A stretch of DNA of 63,722 bases, filler included, from an uncultured Methanosarcinales archaeon (lineage in GTDB: Archaea > Nanobdellota > Nanobdellia > Woesearchaeales > CAYXTQ01), in assembly GCA_964608065.1 (NCBI GenBank). It is 7 parts of 7 records of this genome, joined end to end, with 100 filler letters (N's around TTAATTAATTAA, not from the genome) between each part and the next. Parts side by side here need not be neighbours in the genome. Positions count along the whole stretch, not along the records: positions 20,142 to 29,951 come from CAZSMA010000056.1; 6 more parts are not named here. The stretch is one strand, 5' to 3'. Shown here piece after piece: positions 4,600-58,265 of the stretch. The notes under the pieces are model-generated. The model saw nothing but the letters and a program-made list of their open reading frames with translations. It searched no databases and was not told where the DNA came from. Positions within the stretch are counted from its first letter, which is position 1, and every line of letters starts with the position of its first letter. The position numbers and the translations under genes are program-made.

Positions 4600-4778
4600 G
4601 ATAAATGTAAGGATCTTCATTTTATAAGTTTAATTAAATATGCTGTCATAATTTTATACAATTTTAAAAAATCAAAGTATTTAAGAATGTAAACTTCTTT
4701 TTTTTTTAATTATGGAAAAAAGGTAGTTATTTTCAGAAAGAGGGATTTAAAATGATGCGTAATAATATTCATTGAAGA

Positions 4779-6992
4779 ATGGTTGTTAAAAATAGGATGA
4801 TAAAAAGGTATTTGGTAATTTTGCTTGTAGGAATTTTTATAATTAGTTTTAGTGGAAGTGTTTTTGCTATTGATTATTATGTTGATGCAATTAATGGCAA
4901 TGATTATGCTTCGGGAATCTCTGTCGCCCCTTGGAAGACTATTTCAAAGGTTAATTCAATGAATTTTGAGCCAGGCGATAATATTTATTTTAAAAGAGGA
5001 CAAACGTGGAATGAACAATTGACTATTTCTAGTTCTGGAAATGGAACTAATTGGATTACATTTGGATCTTATGGAAGCGGGGAGAAGCCGGAAATAAACG
5101 GAGCTGATTTAATTACGGGATGGGAAGTCTATGATGAAAATATTTATGTTGCGGATGTTAGTTCAGAGGTAAGACAACTTTTTATTAACGGAGAAAGACA
5201 GACATTGGCACGTTGGCCAAACAGTGGCTGGCAAAATATAAGCGCTAATTCTGAAATTAAAACAAGGTTGTATAGCGAGAGTTTGATTCAGCCAGATGAT
5301 TATTGGAAAAATGCAATTGCTGTTATCAGAACAGCAAATTGGAGGATAGAAACTAAAACAATTACGGCGAATAATCAAAATGAGAATGCAATAGTCTGGG
5401 ATGGAGATGTATATCTTATACAGAAAGACTGGGGTTTTTACATAGAAAATAAATTAGAGGAAATAGATATGCAAGGTGAATGGTATTATGATATTAGTAC
5501 AAAGAGGATTTTTTTATATTTGAATGAAGATCCTGCTAATTACAATATAGAAGGATCTGTGAGAGATTATGGCATTAAGACTCTTTATGAAATGCATCAT
5601 ATTAATATAAATAATTTTAGTATAATCTATTCAAAAGTAGACGGTATCCATACTTATAATTCAGATTATATCAATATAGAAGATAATATTATTTCATTCA
5701 CAAAGAGAAATGGGATTCGGGCAAATATTTATCCAGATAGTGAACATGGCCATATTCATGCTAACAATAATTTAATTTCCTATACTCAGGGAGAAGGAAT
5801 AGTATTTTCAAGGCAAAATTATGGAGAAATTATAAATAACAATTTATTTTACATTGGGGTTAATGAAGTTTCGCCGAAAAAAGTATATGGTGTTATGATT
5901 GGGGGTATGAATCATATTGTTTCTCATAATAAAATAGATGATGTCTCATATGATGGAATATATTTGTCAGGAGGTAGTACCAATGTTAGCATTTCTAATA
6001 ACCTTATCTCTCGCTGTCTGTTATCTCTTTCTGATGGAGGGGGCATTTATACAGCCAGTTGGCATAATAACCTTGTTATTGAAAATAACATTGTGCATGA
6101 TATTGTAGGAAACGCAGGTGGAACTCCTAGCTCGACACCTGCCACTGTAATCGGCATTTATTTAGACGAGCTGGCTGAGGGAATAACTGTTCGGAAAAAT
6201 ATAATCTACAATTGTAACAGTGTAGGGATGATGCTACATAGAACTCACAACAATACAATCATTAATAATGTTATCTATAATACTCCAATATCAGTATATA
6301 TGTCAGAAAAAAGCCAAGATGAAATGTATGATAATAATTTTTATAATAATATTTTTCTTAGTTCAAACGAGGAGCAATTAACTTTTGCAGTAGGTCGTTA
6401 CAGCGGGTCTACCACATCTTCCGGGGATTTTGATTACAATATTCATTATAATCCCTATAATGAAAACGTGATAAGGTATTATCAAGATTGGAAAACAACA
6501 TATTATACTTTTTCACAATGGCAAACATTTTCAGGTCAAGAGCCAAACGGGATGCAAGCAGATCCGCTTTTTACTGATATTTTAAATAACGATTTCAATC
6601 TTCAATCAACTTCTCCAGCTATTGATGCTGGAGTTGATGTCGGCTTAATCCGAGATTTTATAGGAACATTAATCCCTCAAGGTTCTGCTCCAGACATAGG
6701 CGCATATGAATATATTCAAGCTACTCTCTTTTGCACCGATGGGGGGGGAATATGCAAAATAAATACTTGTGATAATTACACTGATTGTAATTCTTTAATT
6801 GGAATTTGTGCAACTGGTTCTTGTTGTTTTGGAACATGCACAGCTTCTTCAACTTGTGGATTTGCAGACACAGACACTGACGGAATAATTAACATAATAG
6901 AATTAATGGATTATATCTCCCAATGGAAAACAGAAAGTGTTACAACCACAGAATTGATGATTGGGATTGGGGAGTGGAAGAATGGATGTTAA
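4779..6992 (+). CDS. Secreted right-handed parallel beta-helix (pectin-lyase-like fold) protein with C-terminal dockerin-like module
   Basis: Signal peptide; YYVDA..GND..G...PWKTI, LARWPN, DGGGIY, GIYLDE motifs; DPLF...SPAIDAG...PDIGAYE tail; DTDTDGIINIIE EF-hand followed by two W-containing helices. Confidence 0.8.
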   Translation: MVVKNRMIKRYLVILLVGIFIISFSGSVFAIDYYVDAINGNDYASGISVAPWKTISKVNSMNFEPGDNIYFKRGQTWNEQLTISSSGNGTNWITFGSYGSGEKPEINGADLITGWEVYDENIYVADVSSEVRQLFINGERQTLARWPNSGWQNISANSEIKTRLYSESLIQPDDYWKNAIAVIRTANWRIETKTITANNQNENAIVWDGDVYLIQKDWGFYIENKLEEIDMQGEWYYDISTKRIFLYLNEDPANYNIEGSVRDYGIKTLYEMHHININNFSIIYSKVDGIHTYNSDYINIEDNIISFTKRNGIRANIYPDSEHGHIHANNNLISYTQGEGIVFSRQNYGEIINNNLFYIGVNEVSPKKVYGVMIGGMNHIVSHNKIDDVSYDGIYLSGGSTNVSISNNLISRCLLSLSDGGGIYTASWHNNLVIENNIVHDIVGNAGGTPSSTPATVIGIYLDELAEGITVRKNIIYNCNSVGMMLHRTHNNTIINNVIYNTPISVYMSEKSQDEMYDNNFYNNIFLSSNEEQLTFAVGRYSGSTTSSGDFDYNIHYNPYNENVIRYYQDWKTTYYTFSQWQTFSGQEPNGMQADPLFTDILNNDFNLQSTSPAIDAGVDVGLIRDFIGTLIPQGSAPDIGAYEYIQATLFCTDGGGICKINTCDNYTDCNSLIGICATGSCCFGTCTASSTCGFADTDTDGIINIIELMDYISQWKTESVTTTELMIGIGEWKNGC

Positions 6993-7099
6993 AAAGAATA
7001 TTTTGATATGGGGGTTCAATTTATGATGGTTGGCAAGGAGTTTGTAAGGAATTTAATTTTCTTTCTTTTGTAGAAAAAAATTCTAAAATTAATTTAGAT

Positions 7100-7258
7100 A
7101 TGATTGAAATAGTAGAATATCAATGGCTTAACTTAGAAACATTTGTCAAATTAATCAAATGGAATGATGATAAAGAGTTACTAAAACAAGTTCTGCAAAA
7201 AGCTCTCAAAAGAGAAAAATATTTTACTAGAACAAAAATTATTGATTACTGGAATTAA
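7100..7258 (+). pseudogene. 52-aa ORF, possibly a C-terminal gene remnant
   Basis: MIEIVEYQWLNLETFVKLIKWNDDKELLKQV loosely resembles Nudix hydrolase C-termini. Confidence 0.25.
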
Positions 7259-7534
7259 TTAAAGTTGAGGAAAATCCTCCATAATTCTAAAAAATTAGAC
7301 ACCCCGTCACACTTCGGTGGGGGCGCTTTTTTCATTTTATCGACGGTAAAATAGTATTTCTAATATCTTAAATGTCCACCGAGATAAAAATATACTCGGT
7401 GGGAGAAAAAATGCCGGAGGCACAGTTAAATTTAATTTTCTAGTCAATCCTATCAAAGGGAGACTATATTTTAAAAGAAATTCTCACTCAAACTCAAAGG
7501 GCTTTCTATTTAATACATTAAGGGCAAGAAAAAC

Positions 7535-8197
7535 TTATTTTGATTTTATTTTTCTAATTAACCATCCAATTGAAAATCCTAAGATTGAACCTAAAATAAT
7601 GTTTATAAATGGTCCCAAGATTAAACAACTCATACAAGCTTCTCCCTGACATTGAGTTATAAAAAAACAAGGTCCAAATCCGAGTGACCTGAGATCGAAT
7701 ATGGCAAAACCAGATTCCCTCATAAAACCGATAACGAAGATCATCATACCCGTGATTCCCCCTATCCAAACTCCCTTTTTTACATAACTCCAGCTTTTAA
7801 CCCTAAATATTAAAAACAAATACACAAAAAGAAGAACGGTTAAGCCTAGAATATATATTAAAATATTTTTAATCCAATAAGAATTTAATTTAAAACCAGT
7901 ATACTTATAACACGATTCTTTGAAATTATCATCATTCATGAGATCGCATATATCTGGATTTTTCGTTTCTAACGCAAAAGCTTGCAAGCACATATCTTTT
8001 AAATGTAAACTTGTTTCTTTTTCACATACTTGATGATTACTAGGATTTTCTTTTGCAATGCTGTTATAATATTCATGGGGGAAATTATAGTTATCAAATC
8101 TTTCATCTAATATAGGTTCGGTAGAATAATAAGCGCCAGTACAGTTTATTAAGAGTATAAAGAACAAAATTGGAAAAAAATAATGTTTAGCTTTCAT
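7535..8197 (-). CDS. Membrane protein with Cys-repeat extracellular domain
   Basis: Signal peptide; C-x8-C..A...KNPDIC-x9-C repeats; 3 TM segments. Confidence 0.65.
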   Translation of the reverse strand: MKAKHYFFPILFFILLINCTGAYYSTEPILDERFDNYNFPHEYYNSIAKENPSNHQVCEKETSLHLKDMCLQAFALETKNPDICDLMNDDNFKESCYKYTGFKLNSYWIKNILIYILGLTVLLFVYLFLIFRVKSWSYVKKGVWIGGITGMMIFVIGFMRESGFAIFDLRSLGFGPCFFITQCQGEACMSCLILGPFINIILGSILGFSIGWLIRKIKSK

Positions 8198-8374
8198 ATT
8201 TTATAATTAAGATAAGAAGTATATAAAGTTTTTCTTGCCTTTTTTAGTAATAGAGATAATTTCAAGTCCTGCCGAGCAATTGCATATAACATATATTAAA
8301 TCTACTTTTTGGGATTTTTCCTTTGAATAATTTAGCACATATTTATTTTTAAATCAACAATTTTTATAGTATAA

Positions 8375-9568
8375 ATGGTCAATTTAGTTGGAGTTCATCA
8401 CGCAGGATTTAATGTATTTCTAGGAGAATTTAAAATGAATGATTTTGCTGTTTATCCTAGTGAGAATTTACTTAGAATCTTATTAAGATCTCCTAAAGAA
8501 ACAAAAATTGGACTTGAATCATTATCTGAAAAGGATTGGAAAGAAGTAAAAGAAGATTTAAAGAATCAAGTTGGAGAAAATTATGATTCACTAAAATTAG
8601 ATGATGGAATAAATTATATTCCTTCTTTTTCAGATGTTTTTGATGAATATTGGAATTCTCTAAAGGTTTATCTTAATAAAATGGATTTAGATGTTGTTTT
8701 TTTAGATAATAAAGAATTATTCCTAAGATATAATGAATTAACAATAAAAAAAGCAAAATTAGAAGTAGAGATTAAGAAAAAACTATTTCAAAGAAAAGGG
8801 GAAAGTGATTTTGAGTATAGTAAAAAATTATATGGGTTCAACGAAGAAAGATATAATTTAGAAATTAAAGAAAGGAAAGTACATGAATTAGAAAGAGATA
8901 CTAAATTATTGGAAAAAATAAAATCGTCAAGAGTTAACATTGCGGTAGTTGGCCAAGGACACTCAGACTTTTGGTTTGGTAATAGGGAATTTATACAAGA
9001 AAAATATGGAATTGATATTGAAAAATATTCTACAGATTTAATGATTCCTCTTTTTGATGGAGGAGAGCATAGAATGACTTTAACAGAAAATGCAGATTCT
9101 GATCCCAAACTACTATTTGAAAGAGAAGGATTAGAAAGATCAATTAGGTTAGTTGAACAAGGAAGAGTAACAGAACATGGAAAACCAGATTATGTTGGGG
9201 TGTGGGATATTCCTGAACCTTCTAAAGGATATTTTGAGGTGTTTATAGATAAAATTGAAGAGAAAAATATCTCTGGATTTATACATGATTTACTTGGAGT
9301 GGCTACATTTAAAGGGACATTAAATGATGGTAGTATGAACTTTGTTAAAAGATATGGTTCACTATCTAGTTCTAATGCTATGAAACAAGATGTCAACTAC
9401 AAAGCTGTAAGGAAAGATAACAATTTTTATGGTCTTTTTTATGCTAATGGTTTTGCTCGTCCTTTTTGTATGATTAAGTCTGTAAAAGAGAAACCAATTG
9501 ATTTATCATTAAAATTTGCGAAGTTTCATGGGGAAAATCCAGAATTTTATGAGGAATTAAAAATCTAG
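8375..9568 (+). CDS. Hypothetical protein (397 aa)
   Basis: Long ORF with TTTTAAAT box upstream; no family recognised. Confidence 0.6.
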   Translation: MVNLVGVHHAGFNVFLGEFKMNDFAVYPSENLLRILLRSPKETKIGLESLSEKDWKEVKEDLKNQVGENYDSLKLDDGINYIPSFSDVFDEYWNSLKVYLNKMDLDVVFLDNKELFLRYNELTIKKAKLEVEIKKKLFQRKGESDFEYSKKLYGFNEERYNLEIKERKVHELERDTKLLEKIKSSRVNIAVVGQGHSDFWFGNREFIQEKYGIDIEKYSTDLMIPLFDGGEHRMTLTENADSDPKLLFEREGLERSIRLVEQGRVTEHGKPDYVGVWDIPEPSKGYFEVFIDKIEEKNISGFIHDLLGVATFKGTLNDGSMNFVKRYGSLSSSNAMKQDVNYKAVRKDNNFYGLFYANGFARPFCMIKSVKEKPIDLSLKFAKFHGENPEFYEELKI

Positions 9569-10003: not shown

Positions 10004-10103
10004 NNNNNNNNNNNNNNNNNNNNNNNNNNNNNNNNNNNNNNNNNNNNTTAATTAATTAANNNNNNNNNNNNNNNNNNNNNNNNNNNNNNNNNNNNNNNNN
10101 NNN
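10004..10103. other. Artificial contig linker
   Basis: N44-TTAATTAATTAA-N44, stops in all six frames. Confidence 0.98.
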
Positions 10104-20041: not shown

Positions 20042-20141
20042 NNNNNNNNNNNNNNNNNNNNNNNNNNNNNNNNNNNNNNNNNNNNTTAATTAATTAANNN
20101 NNNNNNNNNNNNNNNNNNNNNNNNNNNNNNNNNNNNNNNNN
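20042..20141. other. Artificial contig linker
   Basis: N44-TTAATTAATTAA-N44. Confidence 0.98.
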
Positions 20142-20148
20142 AGTTTAA

Positions 20149-21045
20149 ATGAATTATTTGTTCTATGCTTTAATAGCTTATGGATTTTGGGCTATAGGAA
20201 TTGTACTAGATAAAATTCTCAGAACTAAATATATTAAAGATTCAAGTGTTTTGACAGTTTTTTTTGGTATATTTAACTTTTTACCTTTTCTTATAATCTT
20301 ACCATTTCTAAACATAGCAATACCAAAACTTACAACACTTCTAATATCTATTCTTGCAGGATCATTAATGGCAATATCAATTATACCTTATTTTAGTTCA
20401 TTGTCTTTAGAAGAGGCTTCAAGAGTACAGCCATTATGGCATTTTTCTCCGTTATTTGTTTTAATATTAGCTTTAATTTTTTTAGGAGAAAAACTCACTA
20501 CAACTAATTATATTGGTTTCTTTTTCATCTTATTTGGCGGATTGCTAATATCTACAAGAAAAATAAAAGATATTTTTAAAGTTAGCAAAGTGTTTTGGTT
20601 AATGGTGACTGCAAGCTTTCTATGGGCAATTAGTGAAGTGTTGACTAAATATATCTATGGAAGTTTAGATTATTGGAATGGTATATTTTGGATACTTTTA
20701 GGTTTTATGTTAGGTTCTTTGTCTTTACTTTTAATAAAAAAAACAAGAATAAAGTTTAAAAAAACGATATCTACTTTAAACAGAACATCTCTTTCAGTTC
20801 TAATTGTTTCTTCTTTATTAGGATCTGTTGCACGCATATTCTACTTTCTTGCAATAATGCTTGGCTCTGTATCAATAGTTGCTGTTATAAGTGGTTTTGA
20901 AAGCCCTTTTGTCCTGATATTTGCGATTATCCTGTCACATCAACTACCAAAACTATTTAAAGAAGAAATTGATAAAAAAATTATACTTCATAAAATAACA
21001 GCAATATTTTTAATGTTTGTTGGTTTAGTCTTTATATACATATAA
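20149..21045 (+). CDS. EamA/DMT family transporter
   Basis: 10 TM segments in two repeats; EEASRV.PL, FLGEKL. Confidence 0.85.
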   Translation: MNYLFYALIAYGFWAIGIVLDKILRTKYIKDSSVLTVFFGIFNFLPFLIILPFLNIAIPKLTTLLISILAGSLMAISIIPYFSSLSLEEASRVQPLWHFSPLFVLILALIFLGEKLTTTNYIGFFFILFGGLLISTRKIKDIFKVSKVFWLMVTASFLWAISEVLTKYIYGSLDYWNGIFWILLGFMLGSLSLLLIKKTRIKFKKTISTLNRTSLSVLIVSSLLGSVARIFYFLAIMLGSVSIVAVISGFESPFVLIFAIILSHQLPKLFKEEIDKKIILHKITAIFLMFVGLVFIYI

Positions 21046-21046
21046 A

Positions 21047-21508
21047 ATGGAAATAATAAATTACACCTTAACCTTAATAGTATCATTCTTAGGATTAGTA
21101 ATTGGGATAATCTTAGCTTATATAGCAAAAGAAGAACTTAGAGCTGGAAAAAAATATTTTATACTTTTACAGAAAGTAATTTTAACCTTAATCCCATCTT
21201 TTTTTCTTTTTTATTTTTTAAAAAAAAATATTTCTTTATTGATTATTTCAATATTACTTTTTTCCATGTTGATTAATTCGTATAACAAGAGAATTAAAAC
21301 ACATTACATTTACCCATTCTTAGCTTTAATCTTCTTTTTCAGTCATAAAAACATTGATTTATTCAGATTAGAGGCATTTTTAATTTTTCTATATGGTTTT
21401 CCAACAGGATCTTTATTGACAAAAGTGACAAAGAAGAACTACGTAAAAATTGTCTTACAGCATATTTCTTTTGTTGTTATAGGTTTGCTATTGTTTATTC
21501 TTTTTTAA
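21047..21508 (+). CDS. Membrane protein of unknown function
   Basis: Several TM segments; KEEL..GKKYF and FLYGFP.GS motifs. Confidence 0.6.
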   Translation: MEIINYTLTLIVSFLGLVIGIILAYIAKEELRAGKKYFILLQKVILTLIPSFFLFYFLKKNISLLIISILLFSMLINSYNKRIKTHYIYPFLALIFFFSHKNIDLFRLEAFLIFLYGFPTGSLLTKVTKKNYVKIVLQHISFVVIGLLLFILF

Positions 21509-21602
21509 CAGAAATAACTTTGTTTTCTTTATCAACATCAAATATTTTGCCTAAAAACTGTTCACAGATATAGATATTAGTTAATGTGTGATTGCTTATT
21601 TT
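21495..21602 (-). pseudogene. rtcA: Displaced duplicate 3' end of rtcA (35 codons)
   Basis: KISNHTLTNIYICEQFLGKIFDVDKENKVISVKKE* aligns without gaps to RtcA LVTNHCKTNMYVIEKFLPVKF (9/21 identical); no start codon. Confidence 0.8.
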
Positions 21603-23029
21603 TCAAATTTTAATTTAATAATCTTATTAATCTCTTTATGAACTTTCTCAATAGGAATTTTTCTTTTATAAATTCCTTTCTTTTCTCTATCAATATATTC
21701 TAAAATCCCTAATAAAAGTTTTTGTTTTTCTATTCCTTTATGGAATTTTGAACCCCAAACATAGACTTTAGGTAAAAAACCACCTATTTTTAAAAAATTA
21801 AGGATTGATTCCATTCTCGTTGCATATAACCCGTCAATACCTGACCAATGATCATCGCTTTTTCTTACAATCATTTTAATATCAAATTCATCTAATAATC
21901 TCTTTAATTGTTTAACAAGAATTGGATTTGCACAAGATAAATTTAGATGTGGTCTAATCATATTTCTACTCCTCGCTCTATTAAAAGATATTGAACCTTC
22001 TGCACAGAACCATAACCTCAACGCAATTATTTTTGTTTCTTTGTTACATTTAAATAAAAAATCAATAGATGGTTGAACCTCTTTTAGATAATCTTCAGAT
22101 TTTTGATTTTTTGCTGGAGCTGTTTTAGTAGTTTTGCAAATTTTTATGATATTTTTTGCAGTATTTTTATCTACAATAAAGGATGTTTTTCTTAAATTAT
22201 TTCTTCCTTTTAATTGAAAGTAAGCTGTAGGATATTTTTTTAATACATTATACAAAGAATCTAAGAATACATTATGTAATTCTTTATTTTTAGGAACTGA
22301 AAAAAAATCAAAATAATAGATATATTTATTGTGATACGTGTTTCCATCAGTTAAAAGCAAAGGCAACGCCACTCCTTTTAATATATCAACCTTTTTGTAA
22401 GAATATATATTCGATAAAGGTATTTTTATTAAATATTTCTTTTCATAATTAAAAAAATAAGTAAGAAATTTATTTAAAGTAACACAATTTATTTCTTGAA
22501 GTCCATCCTTTCTCTTACTAACTTTTTTTATAGAAAAAAAGGTAAGAATATTTTTAATTTCTTCTTTATTTTTTGTGAGCAAATAAACTCTAGGATTGTG
22601 ATTATCCGGTTTTAAATATTTTATAATACTTAAAATATTTTTATTATAAATCGGGAGTATAATTGTTTTTGAACCACCACTTCCTCTACAATAATAAAAT
22701 CTTGAATTATTTTTTAAGAAAATTTTTAACAATTTTTTTTCATTATATTCATATTTTAATATATTTAATATTTTTTTAATAATATATATAGGAATTCCTT
22801 TTTTATTCCTAATTTTCTTTCCGACATAATCTTTATTCATCCCTAATTTTTTATCTATTTCATAAACTTTGAAACCTTTTTTCTTTATAAGGTCTTTAAT
22901 AAATTCATGTAAATCTGTAACATAAAGCTTTTCTAATAAAGTCAAATTAAACATATTATCTATTAGTTTATCTTTTTTTAAAGATAATTCTATTTGCCAT
23001 ACAGTTGTTTGTTTAGTTTTAATTTTCAT
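21596..23029 (-). CDS. Free-standing two-motif LAGLIDADG homing endonuclease with N-terminal HTH-like region
   Basis: ALPLLLTDGN and ALRLWFCAEGSI motifs; LSCANPILVKQLKRLLDEFDI; extremely Lys-rich and AT-rich. Confidence 0.8.
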   Translation of the reverse strand: MKIKTKQTTVWQIELSLKKDKLIDNMFNLTLLEKLYVTDLHEFIKDLIKKKGFKVYEIDKKLGMNKDYVGKKIRNKKGIPIYIIKKILNILKYEYNEKKLLKIFLKNNSRFYYCRGSGGSKTIILPIYNKNILSIIKYLKPDNHNPRVYLLTKNKEEIKNILTFFSIKKVSKRKDGLQEINCVTLNKFLTYFFNYEKKYLIKIPLSNIYSYKKVDILKGVALPLLLTDGNTYHNKYIYYFDFFSVPKNKELHNVFLDSLYNVLKKYPTAYFQLKGRNNLRKTSFIVDKNTAKNIIKICKTTKTAPAKNQKSEDYLKEVQPSIDFLFKCNKETKIIALRLWFCAEGSISFNRARSRNMIRPHLNLSCANPILVKQLKRLLDEFDIKMIVRKSDDHWSGIDGLYATRMESILNFLKIGGFLPKVYVWGSKFHKGIEKQKLLLGILEYIDREKKGIYKRKIPIEKVHKEINKIIKLKFEK

Positions 23030-23225
23030 TTAAATCTCGCTTTTTATCTGACTGAAATAATGTAAATGATTTTCTATGAAATAGAAAATTATAATTTGAT
23101 TATTGAAATGTTTTATTTAGTGATTTTAAATTAAAACGGTTATTAAACAACTTGGCAAGAATTTTAATCTTTAAATACTTTTCTATTTTACCTTTATTAG
23201 CTTTATTTGGCGGAAAATTAAAATA

Positions 23226-24269
23226 CTATAAATTAGAACATTCTATTAACTGACCTGTTATCTTAAATTTTACTGGCAAAAATTTTTCTATTACATACAT
23301 GTTTGTTTTACAATGGTTAGTAACAAGTGATACTTTTATTTTACTAGGTGAGAATACAGCCATAAAAGGCAATATTTGATCTCCTAAGTACCTATCAACA
23401 GGAGCTTTAAAATTAATCTCCTCAACTAATTTCTGAGCAGCTTCATTCCCAACATCTTCTGCTCTTTTCACTCTTTCACCTAAACAATCAGAGCCTATCC
23501 TGATAGGGTTGTTAAAGTCTATCTCATCTTTGTCTTTAGAGAATATTGCCCATAATGTAATACCAGAACCAATAGAGTCTGTGTTAACATATTCTGTTCT
23601 TATCTGAACAGGAATATTTAATTTATTCAAAACAAGTTTAGCAGCTCTTGCCTGTCTTTCTGCTACTTCTGCTTTCTGCAGCTCAATATGAGCATGACTT
23701 ACCCCTTTAATATGCAACAAATATCCTTGTCCTGTTAATTCAATTTTCTGACTTTTTCTGCTTGGATTAATCTTAATATCAACCTTACCATTCCCTTTAG
23801 GATAATACCCTCTTCTCTCTAATTTAAAGTCAATATCAGCGTATTTTCTTAACTGAGGCAGTAAAATTTCAATAAAATAATTTACAGACATACTCCATTT
23901 TACGTCTGTTCCGCCTTTAATCTTAAATCTTACTTTTTTTTCTGAGAATATACTTGGTAATAATAAAGCTTGCAGCAGTAAAGTAATACTTCCAGCTGTT
24001 CCTATATCAATAGAGATTGTCTTACCTTCTATTTTTCCTGGCTTATACTTTAAATACTCTGAACCAAGCTCAGCTCCTTTAACTTTTGCATTACAAAGCT
24101 CTTGCAAAGCCTTAACACAGAACAGATGCTGATTTTTTAATCCAGGGTTTTTTCTTCCTTTTCTAATATTATTAACTTCAAATTCTTTTCCTGTTATAAC
24201 AGATAAAGCTAAAGCTGTCCTTACTATCTGTCCTCCGCCTTCTAAGTAGTTTCCATCTAAACTTATCAT
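23226..24269 (-). CDS. rtcA: RNA 3'-terminal phosphate cyclase
   Basis: LDGNYLEGGGQIVRTALALS, R.NPGLKNQHL, GTAGSITL, RGYYPKG.G, DQIL, catalytic NH..TN. Confidence 0.95.
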   Translation of the reverse strand: MISLDGNYLEGGGQIVRTALALSVITGKEFEVNNIRKGRKNPGLKNQHLFCVKALQELCNAKVKGAELGSEYLKYKPGKIEGKTISIDIGTAGSITLLLQALLLPSIFSEKKVRFKIKGGTDVKWSMSVNYFIEILLPQLRKYADIDFKLERRGYYPKGNGKVDIKINPSRKSQKIELTGQGYLLHIKGVSHAHIELQKAEVAERQARAAKLVLNKLNIPVQIRTEYVNTDSIGSGITLWAIFSKDKDEIDFNNPIRIGSDCLGERVKRAEDVGNEAAQKLVEEINFKAPVDRYLGDQILPFMAVFSPSKIKVSLVTNHCKTNMYVIEKFLPVKFKITGQLIECSNL

Positions 24270-24386
24270 ATTAAGGAGAATTCAATGTAGGTTTATTAAT
24301 GTTATTATTAAAGTAAATAAATGGCGGTTTGTTTATAATTTGGTATAATACTTTAAATGATCTTGAAGTATAAGAAAGATATTTAA

Positions 24387-25061
24387 ATGTCAATACTATT
24401 TAATAATCCTATGAAAAGAATATTGATAGCAATTATTATGTTGATTTCAGTTCAATTAGTTTTAGGAGCTCAAGACCCAGGATTAGTATTCTGTCAATTG
24501 CAAGGTTATGATGCAGTATTTTCTGTAACAATTCAATATGAAGATAAGCAAGTTCAGTTCGTACCAGGTAATAAATGGAATGATGAAATAATTTTTCCCG
24601 TATCTTTTAGAAAAGAAGACGGAAGTGGCATAGGTTATTTCCATGTCAAAGAGATTTATGGATTGTCAGAAGATGAAAAAACTGAATTAATACAAAAAAT
24701 TGAGAATGAAATCAATTTTGATGAATATACTGTGAAAAAAGATACTGAAACTGATATATATGGTTATGAGTGGTGGTATCTCATATCAGGCGATTTTGAA
24801 ATCTTTACTTTTTGTGATTTCCCAGAAGGGCATGATTGTAAATGGACTGATTTTAGAGATAAAAAATGCGGGACAGAATATATCGAAGACATTCCTTGTG
24901 TCGGAGATGGAGAAGCGATAAGACCAATGTTTCAAGATTGTTGTGAAGGATTAGAAGTTTATAATCCAAGACATAATTGTATGGGGTGTTTGCCCATATG
25001 TAGAATTCCTCCCAATAACTTTTTTATTAAATTCTGGGAATGGATAAAAGGAATTTTCTAA
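24387..25061 (+). CDS. Secreted DUF333-like Cys-rich protein with internal insertion
   Basis: DPGLVFCQLQGY and FCDFPEGHDCKWTDFRDKKCG are the two halves of the DUF333 motif; FWEWIKGIF tail. Confidence 0.55.
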   Translation: MSILFNNPMKRILIAIIMLISVQLVLGAQDPGLVFCQLQGYDAVFSVTIQYEDKQVQFVPGNKWNDEIIFPVSFRKEDGSGIGYFHVKEIYGLSEDEKTELIQKIENEINFDEYTVKKDTETDIYGYEWWYLISGDFEIFTFCDFPEGHDCKWTDFRDKKCGTEYIEDIPCVGDGEAIRPMFQDCCEGLEVYNPRHNCMGCLPICRIPPNNFFIKFWEWIKGIF

Positions 25062-25157
25062 TTTGCCCAACCTATCAATAAATTAACCAGGGTTTATTTA
25101 TCTTAGGCTTTCCATATATAGAATTGAGTTGATTTTACATGAGAGAATTTTTGACTT

Positions 25158-26819
25158 CTAAAACTCACTTCTTTTATGATAATGAGTATGTAATAATTCA
25201 TGCGCCTTCTTAGAATTAGGTTTTCCTAGCATTTCTTTGTAAATTCTTTGGACAGTTGGATTTTCGTGACTCTTTCTTATTGGTAACTTCTTATCCTGTT
25301 TATATATTGCACTCATTCTTTTTTCTATAATTTCTTTTGTAGTTGGCAATGGCTGGCCTCCACCACCAATACAACCTCCAGGACATGCCATCATCTCAAT
25401 AAAATGATACTTATCTTTCTCTTTCAATAACTTCTTAATATTAGCTCCGCCATGTGCTACTGCAAATCTGATTTCCTTTCCTTTTATCTTTACTTTCCCT
25501 GTTTTTATTCCTTCTATACCTCTAATCTCATTAAAATCTATCTTCTTCAATGTCTTTCCAGTACCTAATTCATAAGCAGTCCTTAAAGCAGCTTCCATTA
25601 CACCGCCAGTAGCTCCAAAAATAACTCCTGCACCTGTTGATTCTCCAAGAGGATTATCAAACTCCTCATCTTTTAACTTTTTAAAGTTAATATTAAAATA
25701 TCTTATTAATTTTGCTGCTTCCCTTGTTGTAATAACATAATCAACTCCACTTTTTAGTTCAGGTCTTGTTGATTCAAACTTTTTAGCAGTACAGGGCATT
25801 ACACTTACAACAACAATATCTTTCTTATTGATACCTGCTTTCTTTGCATAATATGTTTTAGTTAACATTCCAAGCATTTCATGGGGGCTTTTACAGGAAG
25901 ACATGTTAGGAAACAAATCATGATTAAAATGTTCCATAAATTTGATCCAAGCTGGACAGCATGTTGTAATCATTGGAAATGGACCATTTTTTCTTATTCT
26001 TTCTAGAAACTCAGTAGATTCTTCCATTATAGTTATGTCTGCTCCTAAATCAGTATCAAAAATTTTATCAAAACCACATTTTCTTAGTGCAGAAACCATT
26101 TTTCCAGTTACTAATGAACCTGCAGGCATTCCAAACTCTTCCCCTAGAGCTGCCCTTACAGAAGGTGCTGTCTGCACAACAACATGTTTTGACTTATCTT
26201 TTAAAGCTTTAATAACTTCAAATAAATGCTCTCTTTCATAAATTGCACCAACAGGACAAGCAGCAATACATTGTCCGCATTTTATACAAGCAACATCATG
26301 CAAAGGATGATTACAATAAGGGCTTACATGTTCTTTAAAACCCCTTTTGGCAAAATCAATAGCATACACATTCATAATTTCTCCACAGACCCTGACACAT
26401 TTTCCACAATTAATGCATTGATTGTTGTTTCTGATAACTGATTCGCTTAAATCTTCTTCATACTTGTGTATAGGATCAAATCTTATTCTAGTCATTCCTA
26501 AATCTTCAATTAGTTTGCATAAATCGTTGTTAATATCACACTTTAAATGTCCTCCCATAAGCAATTCAGCATTTATTTTTCTTGCTTTTGTTATTCTTTT
26601 AGAGCTTGTTTTAATTTCACAACCTTCGTTAGGGTAAGTGCTGCAAGAAGTAACTAATTTTCCATCTAATTCAACCAAACAAAGCCTACATCTTGCTTCA
26701 GGATATAGTCCTTCAATATAGCATAGCTTAGGAATCTCAATTCCTTTTTTCTCACAAATCTGCAGGAGAGTTTCCCCTTCTTTACAGTTTATTTTTTTAC
26801 CATCTAACTTTATCTTCAT
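25158..26819 (-). CDS. hydA: [FeFe]-hydrogenase catalytic subunit (group A)
   Basis: H-cluster motifs TTCCPAW, MPCTAKKFE, EMMACPGGCIGGGGQP; N-terminal 2Fe-2S and two CxxCxxCxxxC motifs. Confidence 0.96.
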   Translation of the reverse strand: MKIKLDGKKINCKEGETLLQICEKKGIEIPKLCYIEGLYPEARCRLCLVELDGKLVTSCSTYPNEGCEIKTSSKRITKARKINAELLMGGHLKCDINNDLCKLIEDLGMTRIRFDPIHKYEEDLSESVIRNNNQCINCGKCVRVCGEIMNVYAIDFAKRGFKEHVSPYCNHPLHDVACIKCGQCIAACPVGAIYEREHLFEVIKALKDKSKHVVVQTAPSVRAALGEEFGMPAGSLVTGKMVSALRKCGFDKIFDTDLGADITIMEESTEFLERIRKNGPFPMITTCCPAWIKFMEHFNHDLFPNMSSCKSPHEMLGMLTKTYYAKKAGINKKDIVVVSVMPCTAKKFESTRPELKSGVDYVITTREAAKLIRYFNINFKKLKDEEFDNPLGESTGAGVIFGATGGVMEAALRTAYELGTGKTLKKIDFNEIRGIEGIKTGKVKIKGKEIRFAVAHGGANIKKLLKEKDKYHFIEMMACPGGCIGGGGQPLPTTKEIIEKRMSAIYKQDKKLPIRKSHENPTVQRIYKEMLGKPNSKKAHELLHTHYHKRSEF

Positions 26820-27916
26820 TTAAATTCCTCTGGGAAATACTTTAAAGCAGTAAGTAAATGATTTGTGCATGTTTGCCCTAATCCGCAAAGAGAGGTTTCA
26901 TGTATGTTTTCTGCTAAGTCTTTCAAAGTCTTTAAATCTGTTTTATTTGCTTTATTTTCTTTTATTTTCTCTAACAAAACTAAAATCCTCTTTGTACCTT
27001 CTCTGCATGGAGTGCATTTTCCACATGATTCATGTTCATAGAATTTTGCTATAGATATTGCAATATCCAAGATAGATTGTTCTTCATCCACAACAATTAC
27101 TGTATAAGCTCCTATTGCACAATTTTTTCCGCAAACATTCTCTGGAGTTAATTCAATCTTGCAATAAGGCATACAGCCTCCAAAACATCCAAAATAAACA
27201 GCTTTTATTTTTTTTTTTGGTTTGCCTAGGTTTATAAGGTCGCAAAGATTATAACCAACAGGAAGTTCATAAATTCCTGGCTTTGTAACATTGCCTGATA
27301 AAGAAAATAATCTTAAATTATGATTCCAATCATCAAACAATATTGCCTGAGGAACATTAGCAAATGTTTCTACATTGTTTATTATAGTGGGTTTGCACCA
27401 CAATCCCTCTACTGGAGGGTAAGGTGGCTTGTAATAAGGATGGCCTCTAGAGCCTTCTATTGATTTGATAATAGCTGTTTCATCTCCGCAAACATAGCTT
27501 CCTGCACCAAGAATTATATCAATTTTTAATCTTGATTTTGATTTTTCTAGAATTTTATCAACAACGTTTTGCAACCCCCTCTTTAAATGCTCATACTCTC
27601 CTCTTAAATAGATAAAAGCTCTTTTTGCATTTATCGTGTATGCTGCTATTAAAATTCCTTCTATTAATGTCTCAGGATTGTTTTTTATAATGAATTTGTC
27701 TTTAAATGTCCCTGGCTCTCCTTCATCTGCATTACATATAATGAATTTTTCATCTGCTTTAGTATCAAATGCAATTTCCCATTTCTTTGCAGTTGGAAAA
27801 CCAGCTCCCCCTCTGCCAGAAAGCCCTTTTCCTCCTAGAACTTTGATTATACCTTTAGAGCCAAGCTTCTTTGCTTTTTTCAAAGCTTTAAGATTTGTTT
27901 TTCTTAAGATTTGCAT
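26816..27916 (-). CDS. hydB: NuoF-like FMN/NADH-binding diaphorase subunit (short form)
   Basis: GRGGAGFPT, NADEGEPGTFKD, GAGSYVCGDETA, NNVET, ESCGKCTPCREG, SLCGLG. Confidence 0.93.
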   Translation of the reverse strand: MQILRKTNLKALKKAKKLGSKGIIKVLGGKGLSGRGGAGFPTAKKWEIAFDTKADEKFIICNADEGEPGTFKDKFIIKNNPETLIEGILIAAYTINAKRAFIYLRGEYEHLKRGLQNVVDKILEKSKSRLKIDIILGAGSYVCGDETAIIKSIEGSRGHPYYKPPYPPVEGLWCKPTIINNVETFANVPQAILFDDWNHNLRLFSLSGNVTKPGIYELPVGYNLCDLINLGKPKKKIKAVYFGCFGGCMPYCKIELTPENVCGKNCAIGAYTVIVVDEEQSILDIAISIAKFYEHESCGKCTPCREGTKRILVLLEKIKENKANKTDLKTLKDLAENIHETSLCGLGQTCTNHLLTALKYFPEEFK

Positions 27917-28338
27917 TTTGTTCTTAATATTTCTCTTAGCTTCTCTTCAGTAAGTTTAGTATATGGTTTTCCGTTCAACAACATGGCAGGAGCTTCATCA
28001 CAACAACCAATGCAACTATATTCATACAAGCCGAATTTCTTATCTTTTGTTGTTTGATTTAATACAACCTTTAACTCTTCTTCAAGAAACCCTATGATAT
28101 TCCAAGAACCATTAACATGACATGATGGGCTATTACAAACATAAATTATATTTTTGCCGTGTTGTTCTGTATTTAAGAATGAGTAGAATGTAGCAACACC
28201 ATAAACTCTTGATATAGGTATTCCTGTCTCCTTACTTATTCTTTTTAATGTTTTTTCTGATAAATATCTTTCTTTTTTCCTTGCTTTAACTAGCTTAGGA
28301 AGAAGCAGCTTATCTGCTGATATATCACACTTTTTCAT
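27904..28338 (-). CDS. hydC: NuoE-like 2Fe-2S subunit
   Basis: VYGVATFYS, VCNSPSCHVNG, SCIGCCDEAP; ATG 28338 has a TATA box about 25 nt upstream. Confidence 0.9.
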   Translation of the reverse strand: MKKCDISADKLLLPKLVKARKKERYLSEKTLKRISKETGIPISRVYGVATFYSFLNTEQHGKNIIYVCNSPSCHVNGSWNIIGFLEEELKVVLNQTTKDKKFGLYEYSCIGCCDEAPAMLLNGKPYTKLTEEKLREILRTKCKS

Positions 28339-28373
28339 ATTATTATTTATAAATACCTTATATTTAAATTTTG

Positions 28374-28527
28374 TCAAAAACCACCTATCATATATGGGTG
28401 GAATGTCGTGAAATGTATAATCACATTGAGTGGTTTTTGAGCATGATCGGAAATATATCTCCTTATAATGGTGTATTGTGGATTTCATCCACTGGTTAGA
28501 AACCAGAGGTATATTTCCGACATGTTA
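28374..28527. repeat. Two adjacent compound palindromes (REP/MITE-like element or structured RNA)
   Basis: TCAAAAACCAC 28374-28384 pairs with GTGGTTTTTGA 28430-28440; CATG-A-TCGGAAATATA pairs with TATATTTCCGA-CATG; internal hairpins GTGGAT..ATCCAC and TGGTT..AACCA. Confidence 0.7.
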
Positions 28528-28569
28528 AAATAAAAAAATATTTAAACAACCTAGTTTTATTTATCTAGA

Positions 28570-29118
28570 ATGGATAATAAATATGCTTACTTAAACAAGA
28601 ATGATTACAATATTGGATTTATTCAGGAAAATATAGAAATGGTTATTTATTCTATTGTTTGTTTTTTTGTTCCATTATTTATAGGACATCCCCAATTATT
28701 TGTTGGAGTCATAGTTAATTCATCACTGATACTGGCTGCATTAAATCTAAGAAATTACAAATTATTACCTATAATACTGCTTCCAAGCATCGGTGTTTTA
28801 TCTAGGGGCATTATATTCGGGCCTTTTACTGTTTTTTTGCTTTATATGCTCCCTTTTATATGGATCGGTAACTCTTTGTTAGTTTATGTGTTTAAGCTAT
28901 TAAATCTTGAGAGGAAAATAAACAAATGGATCACATTATTAGCAGGGTCTTTTATTAAAGCATTGTTCCTTTTTGGAGTAGCATATTTACTTGTAAATTT
29001 AGGAATTATTCCAAACATTTTCTTAAAAACAATGGGATTATTTCAATTCTACACAGCAATAGCTGGAGGCTTTGTTGCATTTGGATTACAGGGGATTAAG
29101 AAAAGAATAAGAATATAA
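28570..29118 (+). CDS. ECF S-component-like membrane protein, divergent from hydCBA
   Basis: QLFVGVIVNSSL, LLPSI, LPFIWIGN, QFYTAIAGG; about 6 TM segments. Confidence 0.65.
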   Translation: MDNKYAYLNKNDYNIGFIQENIEMVIYSIVCFFVPLFIGHPQLFVGVIVNSSLILAALNLRNYKLLPIILLPSIGVLSRGIIFGPFTVFLLYMLPFIWIGNSLLVYVFKLLNLERKINKWITLLAGSFIKALFLFGVAYLLVNLGIIPNIFLKTMGLFQFYTAIAGGFVAFGLQGIKKRIRI

Positions 29119-29134
29119 AAAAAATAAAAAACAA

Positions 29135-29347
29135 TTACTCCTCCCAGCCAATCTCAGATAAGTCTTTCTCTATATCCTCTAGTTCTGAGATATCCATGTC
29201 TTTCTGTAAAGTGTCTATTTCAGAGATGTCTTCACTGATATCATTTTCAGATTCTTCTTTTGATTCTTCTGTTGGTACTGTAGCACAACTAGCTATAAAA
29301 AGCATTAAAATCAGTAGGGCCAATATTATCTTTATTTGTTGTTTCAT
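29135..29347 (-). CDS. Small acidic lipoprotein
   Basis: FIASC lipobox; acidic tail. Confidence 0.6.
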   Translation of the reverse strand: MKQQIKIILALLILMLFIASCATVPTEESKEESENDISEDISEIDTLQKDMDISELEDIEKDLSEIGWEE

Positions 29348-29349
29348 TT

Positions 29350-29951
29350 TTACTCAGCCTCCTCTGATTCTTCTTCATCACTTTCATCTTTAGGTTCTTC
29401 CTCTTCGTCATCTGTTTCTTCATCCTCTATTTCTTCTTCGTCTTCAATCTCAATTGTTTCACCGGCAGCTATTATCCCATCAACTTCTTCTTCTGCTTCA
29501 TTTTCATCGCTTTCTAACTCTTCTTCAACACCCTGCTCTTTTAACTCACTAAATATCCCTTTTAATATTTCATGAGCTTCTTTTAAATCAAGATGTGCTT
29601 GTTTCATATAACTATGCGCTTCTTTTACTATCTCTTCCTCACTTCCTGCTGCAACTTTCATTTCTCCATATTTTTGAACAGCCATTTCATAATTTTTTCT
29701 TGCTAATTCTAACTTATCGCTGAAGTTTTCAATTAAGTTTTCTACATTGCTTGTATCCTTGCCCTGTTCTGTCATTCTTTCAAGAATTCTGTTAAGCTTT
29801 ATCTCTAATTGCTTTGATTTTACTATTATGCCACCTATCTTTGAATTAATCAGTTTACCAGCAGCTCTTTTTGCTAAATACTTTGTATTAGCCCATGTTT
29901 CCCTTACTAGTTCAGCAGCTTCTTTTATATCTTCTTGTGTGCTTTCATTGT
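29350..29951 (-). CDS. Coiled-coil protein with acidic tail (5' truncated)
   Basis: Helical E/K/A-rich ORF; frame appears to continue toward the contig end. Confidence 0.55.
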
Positions 29952-30051
29952 NNNNNNNNNNNNNNNNNNNNNNNNNNNNNNNNNNNNNNNNNNNNTTAAT
30001 TAATTAANNNNNNNNNNNNNNNNNNNNNNNNNNNNNNNNNNNNNNNNNNNN
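29952..30051. other. Artificial contig linker
   Basis: N44-TTAATTAATTAA-N44. Confidence 0.98.
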
Positions 30052-39569: not shown

Positions 39570-39669
39570 NNNNNNNNNNNNNNNNNNNNNNNNNNNNNNN
39601 NNNNNNNNNNNNNTTAATTAATTAANNNNNNNNNNNNNNNNNNNNNNNNNNNNNNNNNNNNNNNNNNNN
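39570..39669. other. Artificial contig linker
   Basis: N44-TTAATTAATTAA-N44. Confidence 0.98.
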
Positions 39670-48871: not shown

Positions 48872-48971
48872 NNNNNNNNNNNNNNNNNNNNNNNNNNNNN
48901 NNNNNNNNNNNNNNNTTAATTAATTAANNNNNNNNNNNNNNNNNNNNNNNNNNNNNNNNNNNNNNNNNNNN
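48872..48971. other. Artificial contig linker
   Basis: N44-TTAATTAATTAA-N44. Confidence 0.98.
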
Positions 48972-58165: not shown

Positions 58166-58265
58166 NNNNNNNNNNNNNNNNNNNNNNNNNNNNNNNNNNN
58201 NNNNNNNNNTTAATTAATTAANNNNNNNNNNNNNNNNNNNNNNNNNNNNNNNNNNNNNNNNNNNN
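58166..58265. other. Artificial contig linker
   Basis: N44-TTAATTAATTAA-N44. Confidence 0.98.

Follow-up and report, generated by a model that had tools for sequence, protein, structure and literature searches.

Organization of the rtcA locus

The window analyzed in this study is a 63,722-nt stretch of DNA from an uncultured Methanosarcinales archaeon (assembly GCA_964608065.1), in which the gene rtcA is followed by a gene for a predicted LAGLIDADG-type homing endonuclease. The finding is confined to one 9,810-nt contig at positions 20142-29951 of the window. On the minus strand of this contig, we found rtcA, a 196-nt spacer, an open reading frame (ORF) of 477 aa, and a second rtcA tail without a start codon, in this order. 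A preliminary description of this DNA had reported an intact rtcA followed by a two-motif LAGLIDADG gene, and a start-less second rtcA C-terminus that overlaps both the endonuclease stop codon and the end of a convergent gene. All four elements were recovered at the positions assigned to them there; both motifs were present, the second C-terminus was read in a different frame from that of the endonuclease, and the overlap with the convergent gene was confirmed. The convergent ORF may mark the ancestral gene boundary. The features of the locus are as follows.

23226..24269, minus strand: rtcA, intact and chimeric, 347 aa, with His319 of the catalytic motif at 23313-23315 (Pfam, PDB match)
23472..24269, minus strand: native rtcA body, residues 1-266 (84% identity to the relatives P0008 and P0009; informative sites 54:4)
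23436..23471, minus strand: interval holding the left recombination breakpoint, residues 267-278 (informative-site split; drop in sliding identity)
23226..23435, minus strand: foreign rtcA 3' tract, residues 279-347 and stop codon, including the H..TN motif (informative sites 2:22, favoring the relative P0017)
23030..23225, minus strand: spacer of 196 nt from the rtcA stop to the endonuclease start, GC 0.20, with a palindrome at 23069-23089
21596..23029, minus strand: free-standing endonuclease gene, 477 aa, with an XRE-type helix-turn-helix (HTH), a linker domain and two LAGLIDADG domains (AF2 model, Foldseek, alignment)
21495..21602, minus strand: orphan native rtcA tail, 35 codons and stop codon, without a start codon, probably extending to 21614 (clade hidden Markov model, BLASTP)
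21047..21508, plus strand: convergent hydrophobic ORF, 153 aa, whose last 14 nt overlap the end of the orphan (no Pfam family)

The active rtcA is a mosaic gene

The product of the window rtcA matched Pfam RTC (E=5.6e-78), RTC_insert (E=1e-15) and the PDB RtcA structure 4o89 (E=8.5e-87), and its membership in RtcA was evident from the presence of the RTC and insert domains together with the His of the H..TN motif. This His319 was aligned with the H..TN His of E. coli RtcA (chain 1qmh_A, index 309), which we take to be the adenylylated catalytic residue. The RtcA relatives were named Woesearchaeota or Nanoarchaeota by their sources. Among the 120 listed, P0008 and P0009 were the closest, with 84% identity over residues 1-280, and they formed the sister group of the window RtcA on the body tree (residues 1-280, 119 rows), with a Shimodaira-Hasegawa-like approximate likelihood ratio test (SH-aLRT) value of 98. 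P0008 ended in KISNHSLTNIYVVEQFLGNIFEVDKENGVISVKKE... and P0009 in NISNHTLTNIYVVEQFLGKIFSVDKENKIISVKKQ, which is the tail type of the orphan and not the LVTNHCKTN type of the active gene; the tail type of relatives had been set beforehand as a test of the proposed replacement.

Sliding comparison revealed that identity to P0008 and P0009 was approximately 27/30 along the body and dropped to approximately 14/30 near the end, and that identity to P0017 climbed to 25/30. Up to residue 266, 54 informative sites grouped the window protein with P0008 and P0009 and 4 with P0017, and from residue 279 the corresponding counts were 2 and 22; the best split, between residues 266 and 279, gave a Fisher p of 7e-14, uncorrected for the choice of the split. 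The active tail was identical to that of P0008 at 18/47 positions and to that of P0009 at 19/47 (38-40%), compared with 76-79% for P0017. From body to tail, identity with P0008 fell from 84% to 38%. As a control, we used 121 pairs of similar body identity formed by RtcAs that do not carry the replaced tail type (non-carriers, as defined below), and none of them fell so low, the minimum being 47%.

Because the informative sites switch between residues 266 and 279, the foreign tract is approximately 70-80 codons long (23435/23471 to 23226). This exceeds the 35-39 duplicated codons, and approximately 30-40 codons upstream of the duplicate were converted without duplication; a foreign tract longer than the duplicated part matches the expectation for co-conversion upstream of a break. 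The mobile unit had previously been proposed to bring a new rtcA 3' end at 23226-23327. The carried end was retained in our analysis, whereas its extent had to be revised, as the foreign part starts upstream of 23327, at 23471-23436, and is not limited to 34 codons.

The highest local identity to the window RtcA was shown by P0010 (85% over 79% of the query). This protein is likely chimeric, because its C-terminus is an unrelated Pro/Arg-rich stretch and its contig is only 1357 nt long.

The orphan is the native rtcA tail

The translation of the orphan at 21495-21602 (minus strand) is KISNHTLTNIYICEQFLGKIFDVDKENKVISVKKE*, where the asterisk denotes the stop. It overlaps the TAA of the endonuclease gene in the -1 frame, is preceded by TGA and contains no ATG, GTG or TTG. 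A score against an RtcA hidden Markov model (HMM) had been named in advance as a test of the orphan's identity. With a clade RtcA HMM built from 116 relatives, from which the window protein, P0008 and P0009 were left out, the orphan reached 44.4 bits, with E=1.5e-12 in a search of the window's 2328 six-frame segments, which was far above chance, the runner-up having E=2.2. The match covered positions 320-352 of the 353 HMM positions. When searched against the whole of Pfam, the orphan gave a weak match to the last 23 positions of RTC (199-221 of 221, E=0.13).

In a BLASTP comparison, 29 of 34 residues (85%) were identical between the orphan and the P0009 C-terminus, and the alignment reached the last residue of P0009 (E=5e-19); with the window's own RtcA, only 8/16 identities were found. 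The orphan is therefore the native tail of the rtcA body found here, and it contained no stop or frameshift across its 35 codons. The four codons ahead of it read IKI*, the relatives have IKVS or IKVA in this region, and the tblastn alignment begins at 21614. We tentatively suggest that the orphan probably starts four codons further out, at 21614, which would place the insertion point approximately 8 codons before the His codon. The earlier placement of the insertion just before the catalytic motif is thus kept as regards its proximity to the His, with this distance if the orphan reaches 21614.

The 3' end of the endonuclease gene is variable at the orphan junction (21596-21630), where the window endonuclease and its homologue P0004 end approximately 11 residues short of P0001-P0003, P0005 and P0006 (...YI..(H/F)S). 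A -1 slip at GAA-AAA-TAA, by which the endonuclease would be fused to the orphan, was considered and found to be unsupported, as the homologues merely end 0-11 residues later.

Structure and family of the endonuclease

The 477-aa ORF matched Pfam LAGLIDADG_3 (PF14528) with 21.1 bits (E=3.8e-4) and showed a faint match to HTH_3. PF14528 was also found in the distant family members L001, L003 and L004 (22.5-24.3 bits, see below) and, in precomputed annotation, in P0001-P0004 and P0006, and HTH_3 was clear in relatives of the window endonuclease. An AF2 model predicted from a 28-sequence alignment had a pLDDT of 93.1 and a pTM of 0.83. The predicted fold consists of two alpha-beta-beta-alpha-beta-beta-alpha domains packed via the two LAGLIDADG helices. 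Foldseek revealed 55 PDB matches at E<=0.001, among them two-domain LAGLIDADG proteins; the matches included I-AniI (2.8e-5), I-Tsp061I (3.1e-5), I-DmoI (TMt of approximately 0.7), I-SceI, the I-OnuI family and WhiA.

The motifs LLLTDG and FCAEG were present in the ORF. The LAGLIDADG helices (residues 216-227 and 330-344) end at D228 and E344, presumably the catalytic metal-binding positions of LAGLIDADG enzymes, and an acidic residue followed by Gly was found at both motif ends in 28/28 aligned family members. The XRE-type HTH lies N-terminally at approximately residues 40-106, and its profile matched restriction-modification controller (C-) proteins and the HipB HTH in the PDB. One relative, P0005, is named a transcriptional regulator by JGI.

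A length-restricted search gave 6 matches among 5.8 billion clustered proteins, and the family as a whole comprised 162 cluster representatives at E<=1e-3, of which 20 were at E<=1e-30; the family is rare but real. No relatives of the endonuclease were found by tblastn in phage or plasmid collections, and no second copy was found in the window.

A perfect 9-3-9 palindrome, ATTTTCTAT-TTC-ATAGAAAAT, lies in the spacer at 23069-23089, approximately 40 nt upstream of the endonuclease start. Perfect 8-3-8 palindromes number only 8 in the whole window, and at L004 the endonuclease is likewise preceded by TTCTAT...ATAGAA. The spacer palindrome could act as an operator for the HTH domain or as a terminator of rtcA, and the spacer as a whole may serve as a promoter or operator region. 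A scan for sigma-70 promoters and terminators, which is unsuited to archaea, performed no better than on shuffled sequences. Neither a target-site duplication nor terminal repeats were found in a repeat search.

Distribution of the tail type and its link to the endonuclease

The active tail type was defined by FLP[VI][KR]F, and P0010, with its aberrant truncated C-terminus, was dropped from this comparison. The pattern was carried by 7 of the 119 RtcAs; six of the carriers also end in ...IEC, and P0083 is ambiguous. On the body tree, the 7 carriers required 7 changes, and each was nested among non-carriers, with which it shared 74-85% identity in the body. When the labels were shuffled, the mean was 6.9 changes and 500/500 shuffles were as low, so the carriers are no more clustered than shuffled labels. 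The carrier tail type is sporadically distributed, in conflict with the host phylogeny, and, as read from these sequences, it moves independently of the RtcA body. In a tail-restricted search, FLPVKFKI-type tails looked native in shorter RtcAs, including one source-named Aenigmarchaeota and one Pacearchaeota, and E. coli RtcA has FLPVRF; the inserted tail is therefore an ordinary RtcA tail from another lineage.

To this tail type, the endonuclease appeared to be linked. Only three close endonuclease homologues lay on long contigs, P0001, P0002 and P0003, which were 58-61% identical to the window protein. The lengths of their longest contigs (25635, 56668 and 53600 nt) equalled those for the RtcAs P0012, P0074 and P0087, respectively, all of which are tail carriers, and were matched by no non-carrier listed. 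By our arithmetic, the chance of three such RtcAs all being carriers is approximately 4e-5. In addition, the rank order of the pairwise endonuclease identities (58-69%) agreed with that of the tail identities (57-71%) but not with that of the body identities, in six pairs that are not independent of one another. P0087 and P0003 are source-named 'Acidobacteria bacterium', and their proteins are of the Woesearchaeota kind; they are probably mis-binned.

Related loci in distant archaea

A scan of the GTDB representatives with a 12-sequence endonuclease alignment revealed 8 loci, whose members shared 29-39% identity with the window endonuclease. L001, L005 and L006 come from Borrarchaeum metagenome-assembled genomes (MAGs), L002 and L003 from a Sifarchaeum MAG, L004 from a Promethearchaeota MAG, and L007 and L008 from two MAGs labelled Methanosarcinales (GC 0.32). 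No rtcA-linked homing layout was found among these 8 loci. An orphaned host-gene end across the endonuclease was present in 3/8 (L001, L003 and L004), all in Asgard MAGs.

At L004, the duplicate comprised the 28 C-terminal residues of a 3-hydroxyacyl-CoA dehydrogenase (79% identity, E=2e-9); a stop closes each copy, and between them the endonuclease gene runs antisense. L003 showed the same element order as the rtcA locus, with the tail of a winged-helix (wHTH) gene as the duplicate (E=4e-5); this orphan contains an internal stop and begins 20 nt past the endonuclease stop. L001 was the mirror image of the rtcA layout and involved a 5' end: the endonuclease is preceded by an orphan 5' end (MSKVKFCINCGNKINPGEKFSH*) from a Zn-ribbon/CdvA-like gene, which is present in full on the downstream side (79% identity over 19 aa, E=1e-6).

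Some further properties of these loci were observed. The L001 endonuclease is located between paralogous Zn-ribbon/CdvA-like coiled-coil genes (4762-5544 and 7715-8491) with 34% identity over 230 aa, and the orphan 5' fragment is at 5581-5637. The MAG that holds L001 as an intact copy also holds L005 (5953-7418), which is split into overlapping ORFs at 5953-6606 and 6603-7418 and is thus frameshifted and decaying. The two copies in the Sifarchaeum MAG, L002 and L003, are 51% identical. At L007 (5416-8096) and L008 (5431-8027), a family member of approximately 516 aa has a stop codon that overlaps the start of trm1 (TRM, 5e-90), and the copies in the two MAGs are 72% identical. In both, rtcA lies approximately 2.5 kb away on the other strand, with RtcA tails that resemble the Woesearchaeota type despite the Methanosarcinales label.

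Proposed homing with a replacement gene end

The explanation that we favor, with a probability of approximately 0.75, is homing without an intron, in which the endonuclease gene travels with a replacement gene end; the locus would have originated in this way and probably continues to function so. According to this model, a free-standing endonuclease gene with an HTH and two LAGLIDADG domains would have invaded rtcA without an intron or intein, and the mobile cassette would consist of a foreign rtcA 3' segment with its own stop, the spacer and the endonuclease gene. An endonuclease-free rtcA would first be cut in conserved DNA near codons ~305-320, which encode the IKVS-(K/N)ISNH..TN region and the catalytic His, and the break would then be repaired with the cassette-bearing allele as the template. 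The left crossover would fall in the rtcA body, here at codons 267-279, so that approximately 30-40 codons would be co-converted, and the right crossover would fall in the old tail. The recipient would retain a working chimeric RtcA in which the target region is swapped for a divergent, presumably uncleavable version. The native tail would be displaced downstream as an untranslatable orphan and could act as the right homology arm in the next round. The N-terminal XRE-type HTH may widen target recognition or may autoregulate the gene through the spacer palindrome. That such an event leaves a chimeric RtcA had been anticipated in the preliminary description, and it is borne out by the switch of informative sites and by the recurrence of the tail type on unrelated RtcA bodies.

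Several observations weigh against this model. For the window protein, LAGLIDADG_3 at 21.1 bits falls under the gathering cut-off of 22.5, and the best Foldseek match was WhiA (8dy9_I, E=1.8e-5), a regulator that is not a nuclease and in which LAGLIDADG and an HTH are likewise combined. P0017 is only a stand-in for the donor, and the left breakpoint was placed at the protein level. Separate body and tail trees had been suggested as a check; the body tree scattered the carriers and placed P0008 and P0009 as sister to the window RtcA, but the tail-only tree (154 rows, 35 columns) was unresolved. In the approximately unbiased (AU) test, the active tail could be grouped with P0008 and P0009 without rejection (p=0.56), and p was 0.70 for the orphan with P0008 and P0009; neither result was informative, and the constrained trees outscored the quick free tree. 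The adjacency of endonuclease and rtcA in close relatives, and the orphans there, are suggested only by the equal lengths of the longest contigs, and the carriers P0017 and P0069 had no matching endonuclease contig. Among the 8 distant loci, a flanking duplicate was not found in the other 5, and L007 and L008 looked syntenic and vertically inherited.

The alternative that survives best is that the cassette arrived as proposed and is now a relic, its endonuclease being inactive, fixed or domesticated, for example as an XRE/WhiA-like regulator. The top rank of WhiA among the Foldseek matches, the clear XRE-type HTH in the family and the JGI name of P0005 are consistent with such a fate; at L007 and L008, the gene occurs in conserved synteny and no duplicates flank it, and the frameshift at L005 shows that members of the family do decay. 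The window ORF, however, has stayed open at a GC content of 22%, at which stop codons readily appear, and the acidic residues of both motifs are retained in 28/28 members. Moreover, the undecayed orphan, still 85% identical to the functional tail of a relative, argues for a recent event, and the nesting of each carrier among non-carriers 74-85% identical in the body implies repeated recent spread. We consider a relic unlikely, although a domesticated WhiA-like regulator stays a minor possibility for the present-day protein.

A second alternative is that the 1.7-kb insert, comprising the foreign tail, the spacer and the endonuclease, is an intron that is spliced out by the bulge-helix-bulge (BHB) endonuclease or as a group I/II ribozyme, by which the body would be rejoined to the native tail. 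In archaea, introns are the classical carriers of LAGLIDADG genes, the fold matches included I-DmoI and I-Tsp061I, and the orphan tail is undecayed. Nevertheless, no Rfam family was found at E<=1 in 20900-24500, and a crude BHB scan gave 11 candidates compared with 19.1 +/- 6.9 in controls. The upstream gene is already completed by a full in-frame tail with its stop, the orphan lies in another frame than the endonuclease with a TGA before it, and the L004 endonuclease is encoded on the strand opposite to its host gene. Splicing is thus very improbable, in agreement with the earlier view that neither an intron nor an intein is involved. An intein is ruled out by the anatomy, since the endonuclease has an ORF of its own, set apart from rtcA by a stop codon and the 196-nt spacer.

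That no mobile element is involved, and that a decayed tandem rtcA duplication or an assembly chimera has an endonuclease-like gene in between by chance, is just as improbable: strain mixing in a 9.8-kb metagenome assembly could yield short duplicated ends, but a duplication predicts tails of the same lineage, whereas at rtcA a native orphan is paired with a foreign active tail. Moreover, independently assembled genomes show this layout at other host genes, and on three further contigs the tail type is accompanied by endonuclease homologues, as judged by equal lengths of the longest contigs.

Comparison with known homing systems

The closest parallel to replacement-end homing at rtcA was found in fungal mitochondria. 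The available portions of PMC3630166 describe mobile ORFs (mORFs) that create hybrid genes in Allomyces macrogynus atp6, in Glomus sp. atp6, atp9, cox2 and nad3, in Rhizopus atp9 and in Mortierella cox2, and those of PMC6279837 describe C-terminal duplications of cob and atp6 beside LAGLIDADG/GIY-YIG ORFs in Endoconidiophora. In the hybrids, as set out in the same portions of PMC3630166, a core is followed by a foreign in-phase C-terminus with a stop, the endonuclease ORF and the native C-terminus; core and tail phylogenies conflict, and the native copy is much nearer to the sister species than the inserted copy is. As far as these portions go, the element order at the rtcA locus is identical, and the native tail is likewise far nearer to P0009 (29/34) than the active tail is to P0008 or P0009 (18/47 and 19/47). 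In contrast to the fungal cases, the host is an archaeal chromosome (a DPANN-like contig, and also Asgard MAGs) and the target is the gene of a non-organellar enzyme; the endonuclease is an HTH-LAGLIDADG fusion of approximately 480 aa with its own start after a 196-nt spacer, out of phase with the host gene; and L001 carries a replacement 5' end and L004 is antisense to its host gene. The rtcA element works like the mORF family, but is no member of it by host.

Free-standing homing endonucleases of T-even phages, such as SegF/SegG and MobE, are described in the available portions of PMC2790892 and PMC2988022 as agents of 'intronless homing' with co-conversion of flanking markers. Like the rtcA element, they lack an intron or intein, their genes lie between or beside other genes, and break repair co-converts the neighbors to give mosaic genes. 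The phage enzymes are of the GIY-YIG or HNH type, usually cut a neighboring gene, sit intergenically without a duplicated gene end, and spread in mixed phage infections and not between cellular chromosomes.

With the archaeal intron and intein enzymes I-DmoI, I-Tsp061I and PI-PfuI, the window enzyme shares the two-domain fold, the Asp/Glu at the helix ends and the archaeal host. Those enzymes, however, are embedded in rRNA introns or inteins, elements that are eliminated from the RNA or the protein, whereas the window enzyme is free-standing, has an extra N-terminal HTH region of approximately 200 residues and has a replacement gene end instead of splicing. WhiA, a bacterial LAGLIDADG-derived transcription factor in which the catalytic acidic residues are lost, also joins the LAGLIDADG scaffold to an HTH. 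The HTH of WhiA is C-terminal and that of the window enzyme N-terminal, and the family of the latter differs further in its retained acidic residues (28/28) and in the signs of insertion at a gene. In a literature search that reached few subscription journals, we found no archaeal or rtcA case of replacement-end homing, and none had been known to the preliminary description for an archaeal rtcA.

Significance of the rtcA element

Homing endonucleases in cellular chromosomes are thought to need introns or inteins, by which the invaded gene is spared. The rtcA locus and the three Asgard loci indicate a third route in archaea, namely carrying a spare gene end. On a wider proposal we regard the case as evenly balanced: the window may represent one member of an unrecognised, widespread archaeal family of free-standing HTH-LAGLIDADG endonucleases (162 cluster representatives; DPANN, Asgard and others) that colonises chromosomal protein genes via replacement ends, 3' at rtcA, 3-hydroxyacyl-CoA dehydrogenase and wHTH genes and 5' at the Zn-ribbon gene, and so drives segmental horizontal transfer and the formation of chimeric enzymes. 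Beyond organelles and phages, such a system would be without precedent.

If active, the family would explain mosaic, phylogeny-breaking segments in conserved archaeal genes, and the last ~70 residues of RtcA, including the catalytic His, would travel sideways between lineages, which would call for caution with single-gene phylogenies and MAG annotation. Active members would also supply genome engineering with new long-site nucleases that carry an additional HTH module, and in uncultivated DPANN and Asgard archaea they would serve as natural markers of where DNA has been exchanged and has undergone homologous recombination. Even with an inactive enzyme, the locus would be a clean counterpart in archaea of the mORF hybrids known from fungal mitochondria.

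Composition and surroundings of the locus

The GC content was 0.22 in the endonuclease gene, 0.33 in the rtcA body and 0.23 in the neighboring membrane gene; composition fails to mark the insert, because the neighboring membrane gene resembles the endonuclease gene in this respect. The window is an artificial chain of contigs of approximately 9-10 kb, so that genes beyond 20142-29951 are not necessarily neighbors of rtcA. Each gap reads N44 + TTAATTAATTAA + N44, and the gaps lie at 10004-10103, 20042-20141, 29952-30051, 39570-39669, 48872-48971 and 58166-58265. The neighbors of the locus are an EamA transporter and an [FeFe]-hydrogenase. The latter, a 553-aa protein encoded on the same contig as rtcA at 25158-26819 (minus strand), matched Fe_hyd_lg_C (2.2e-95) and contains small-subunit, 2Fe-2S and 4Fe-4S domains.

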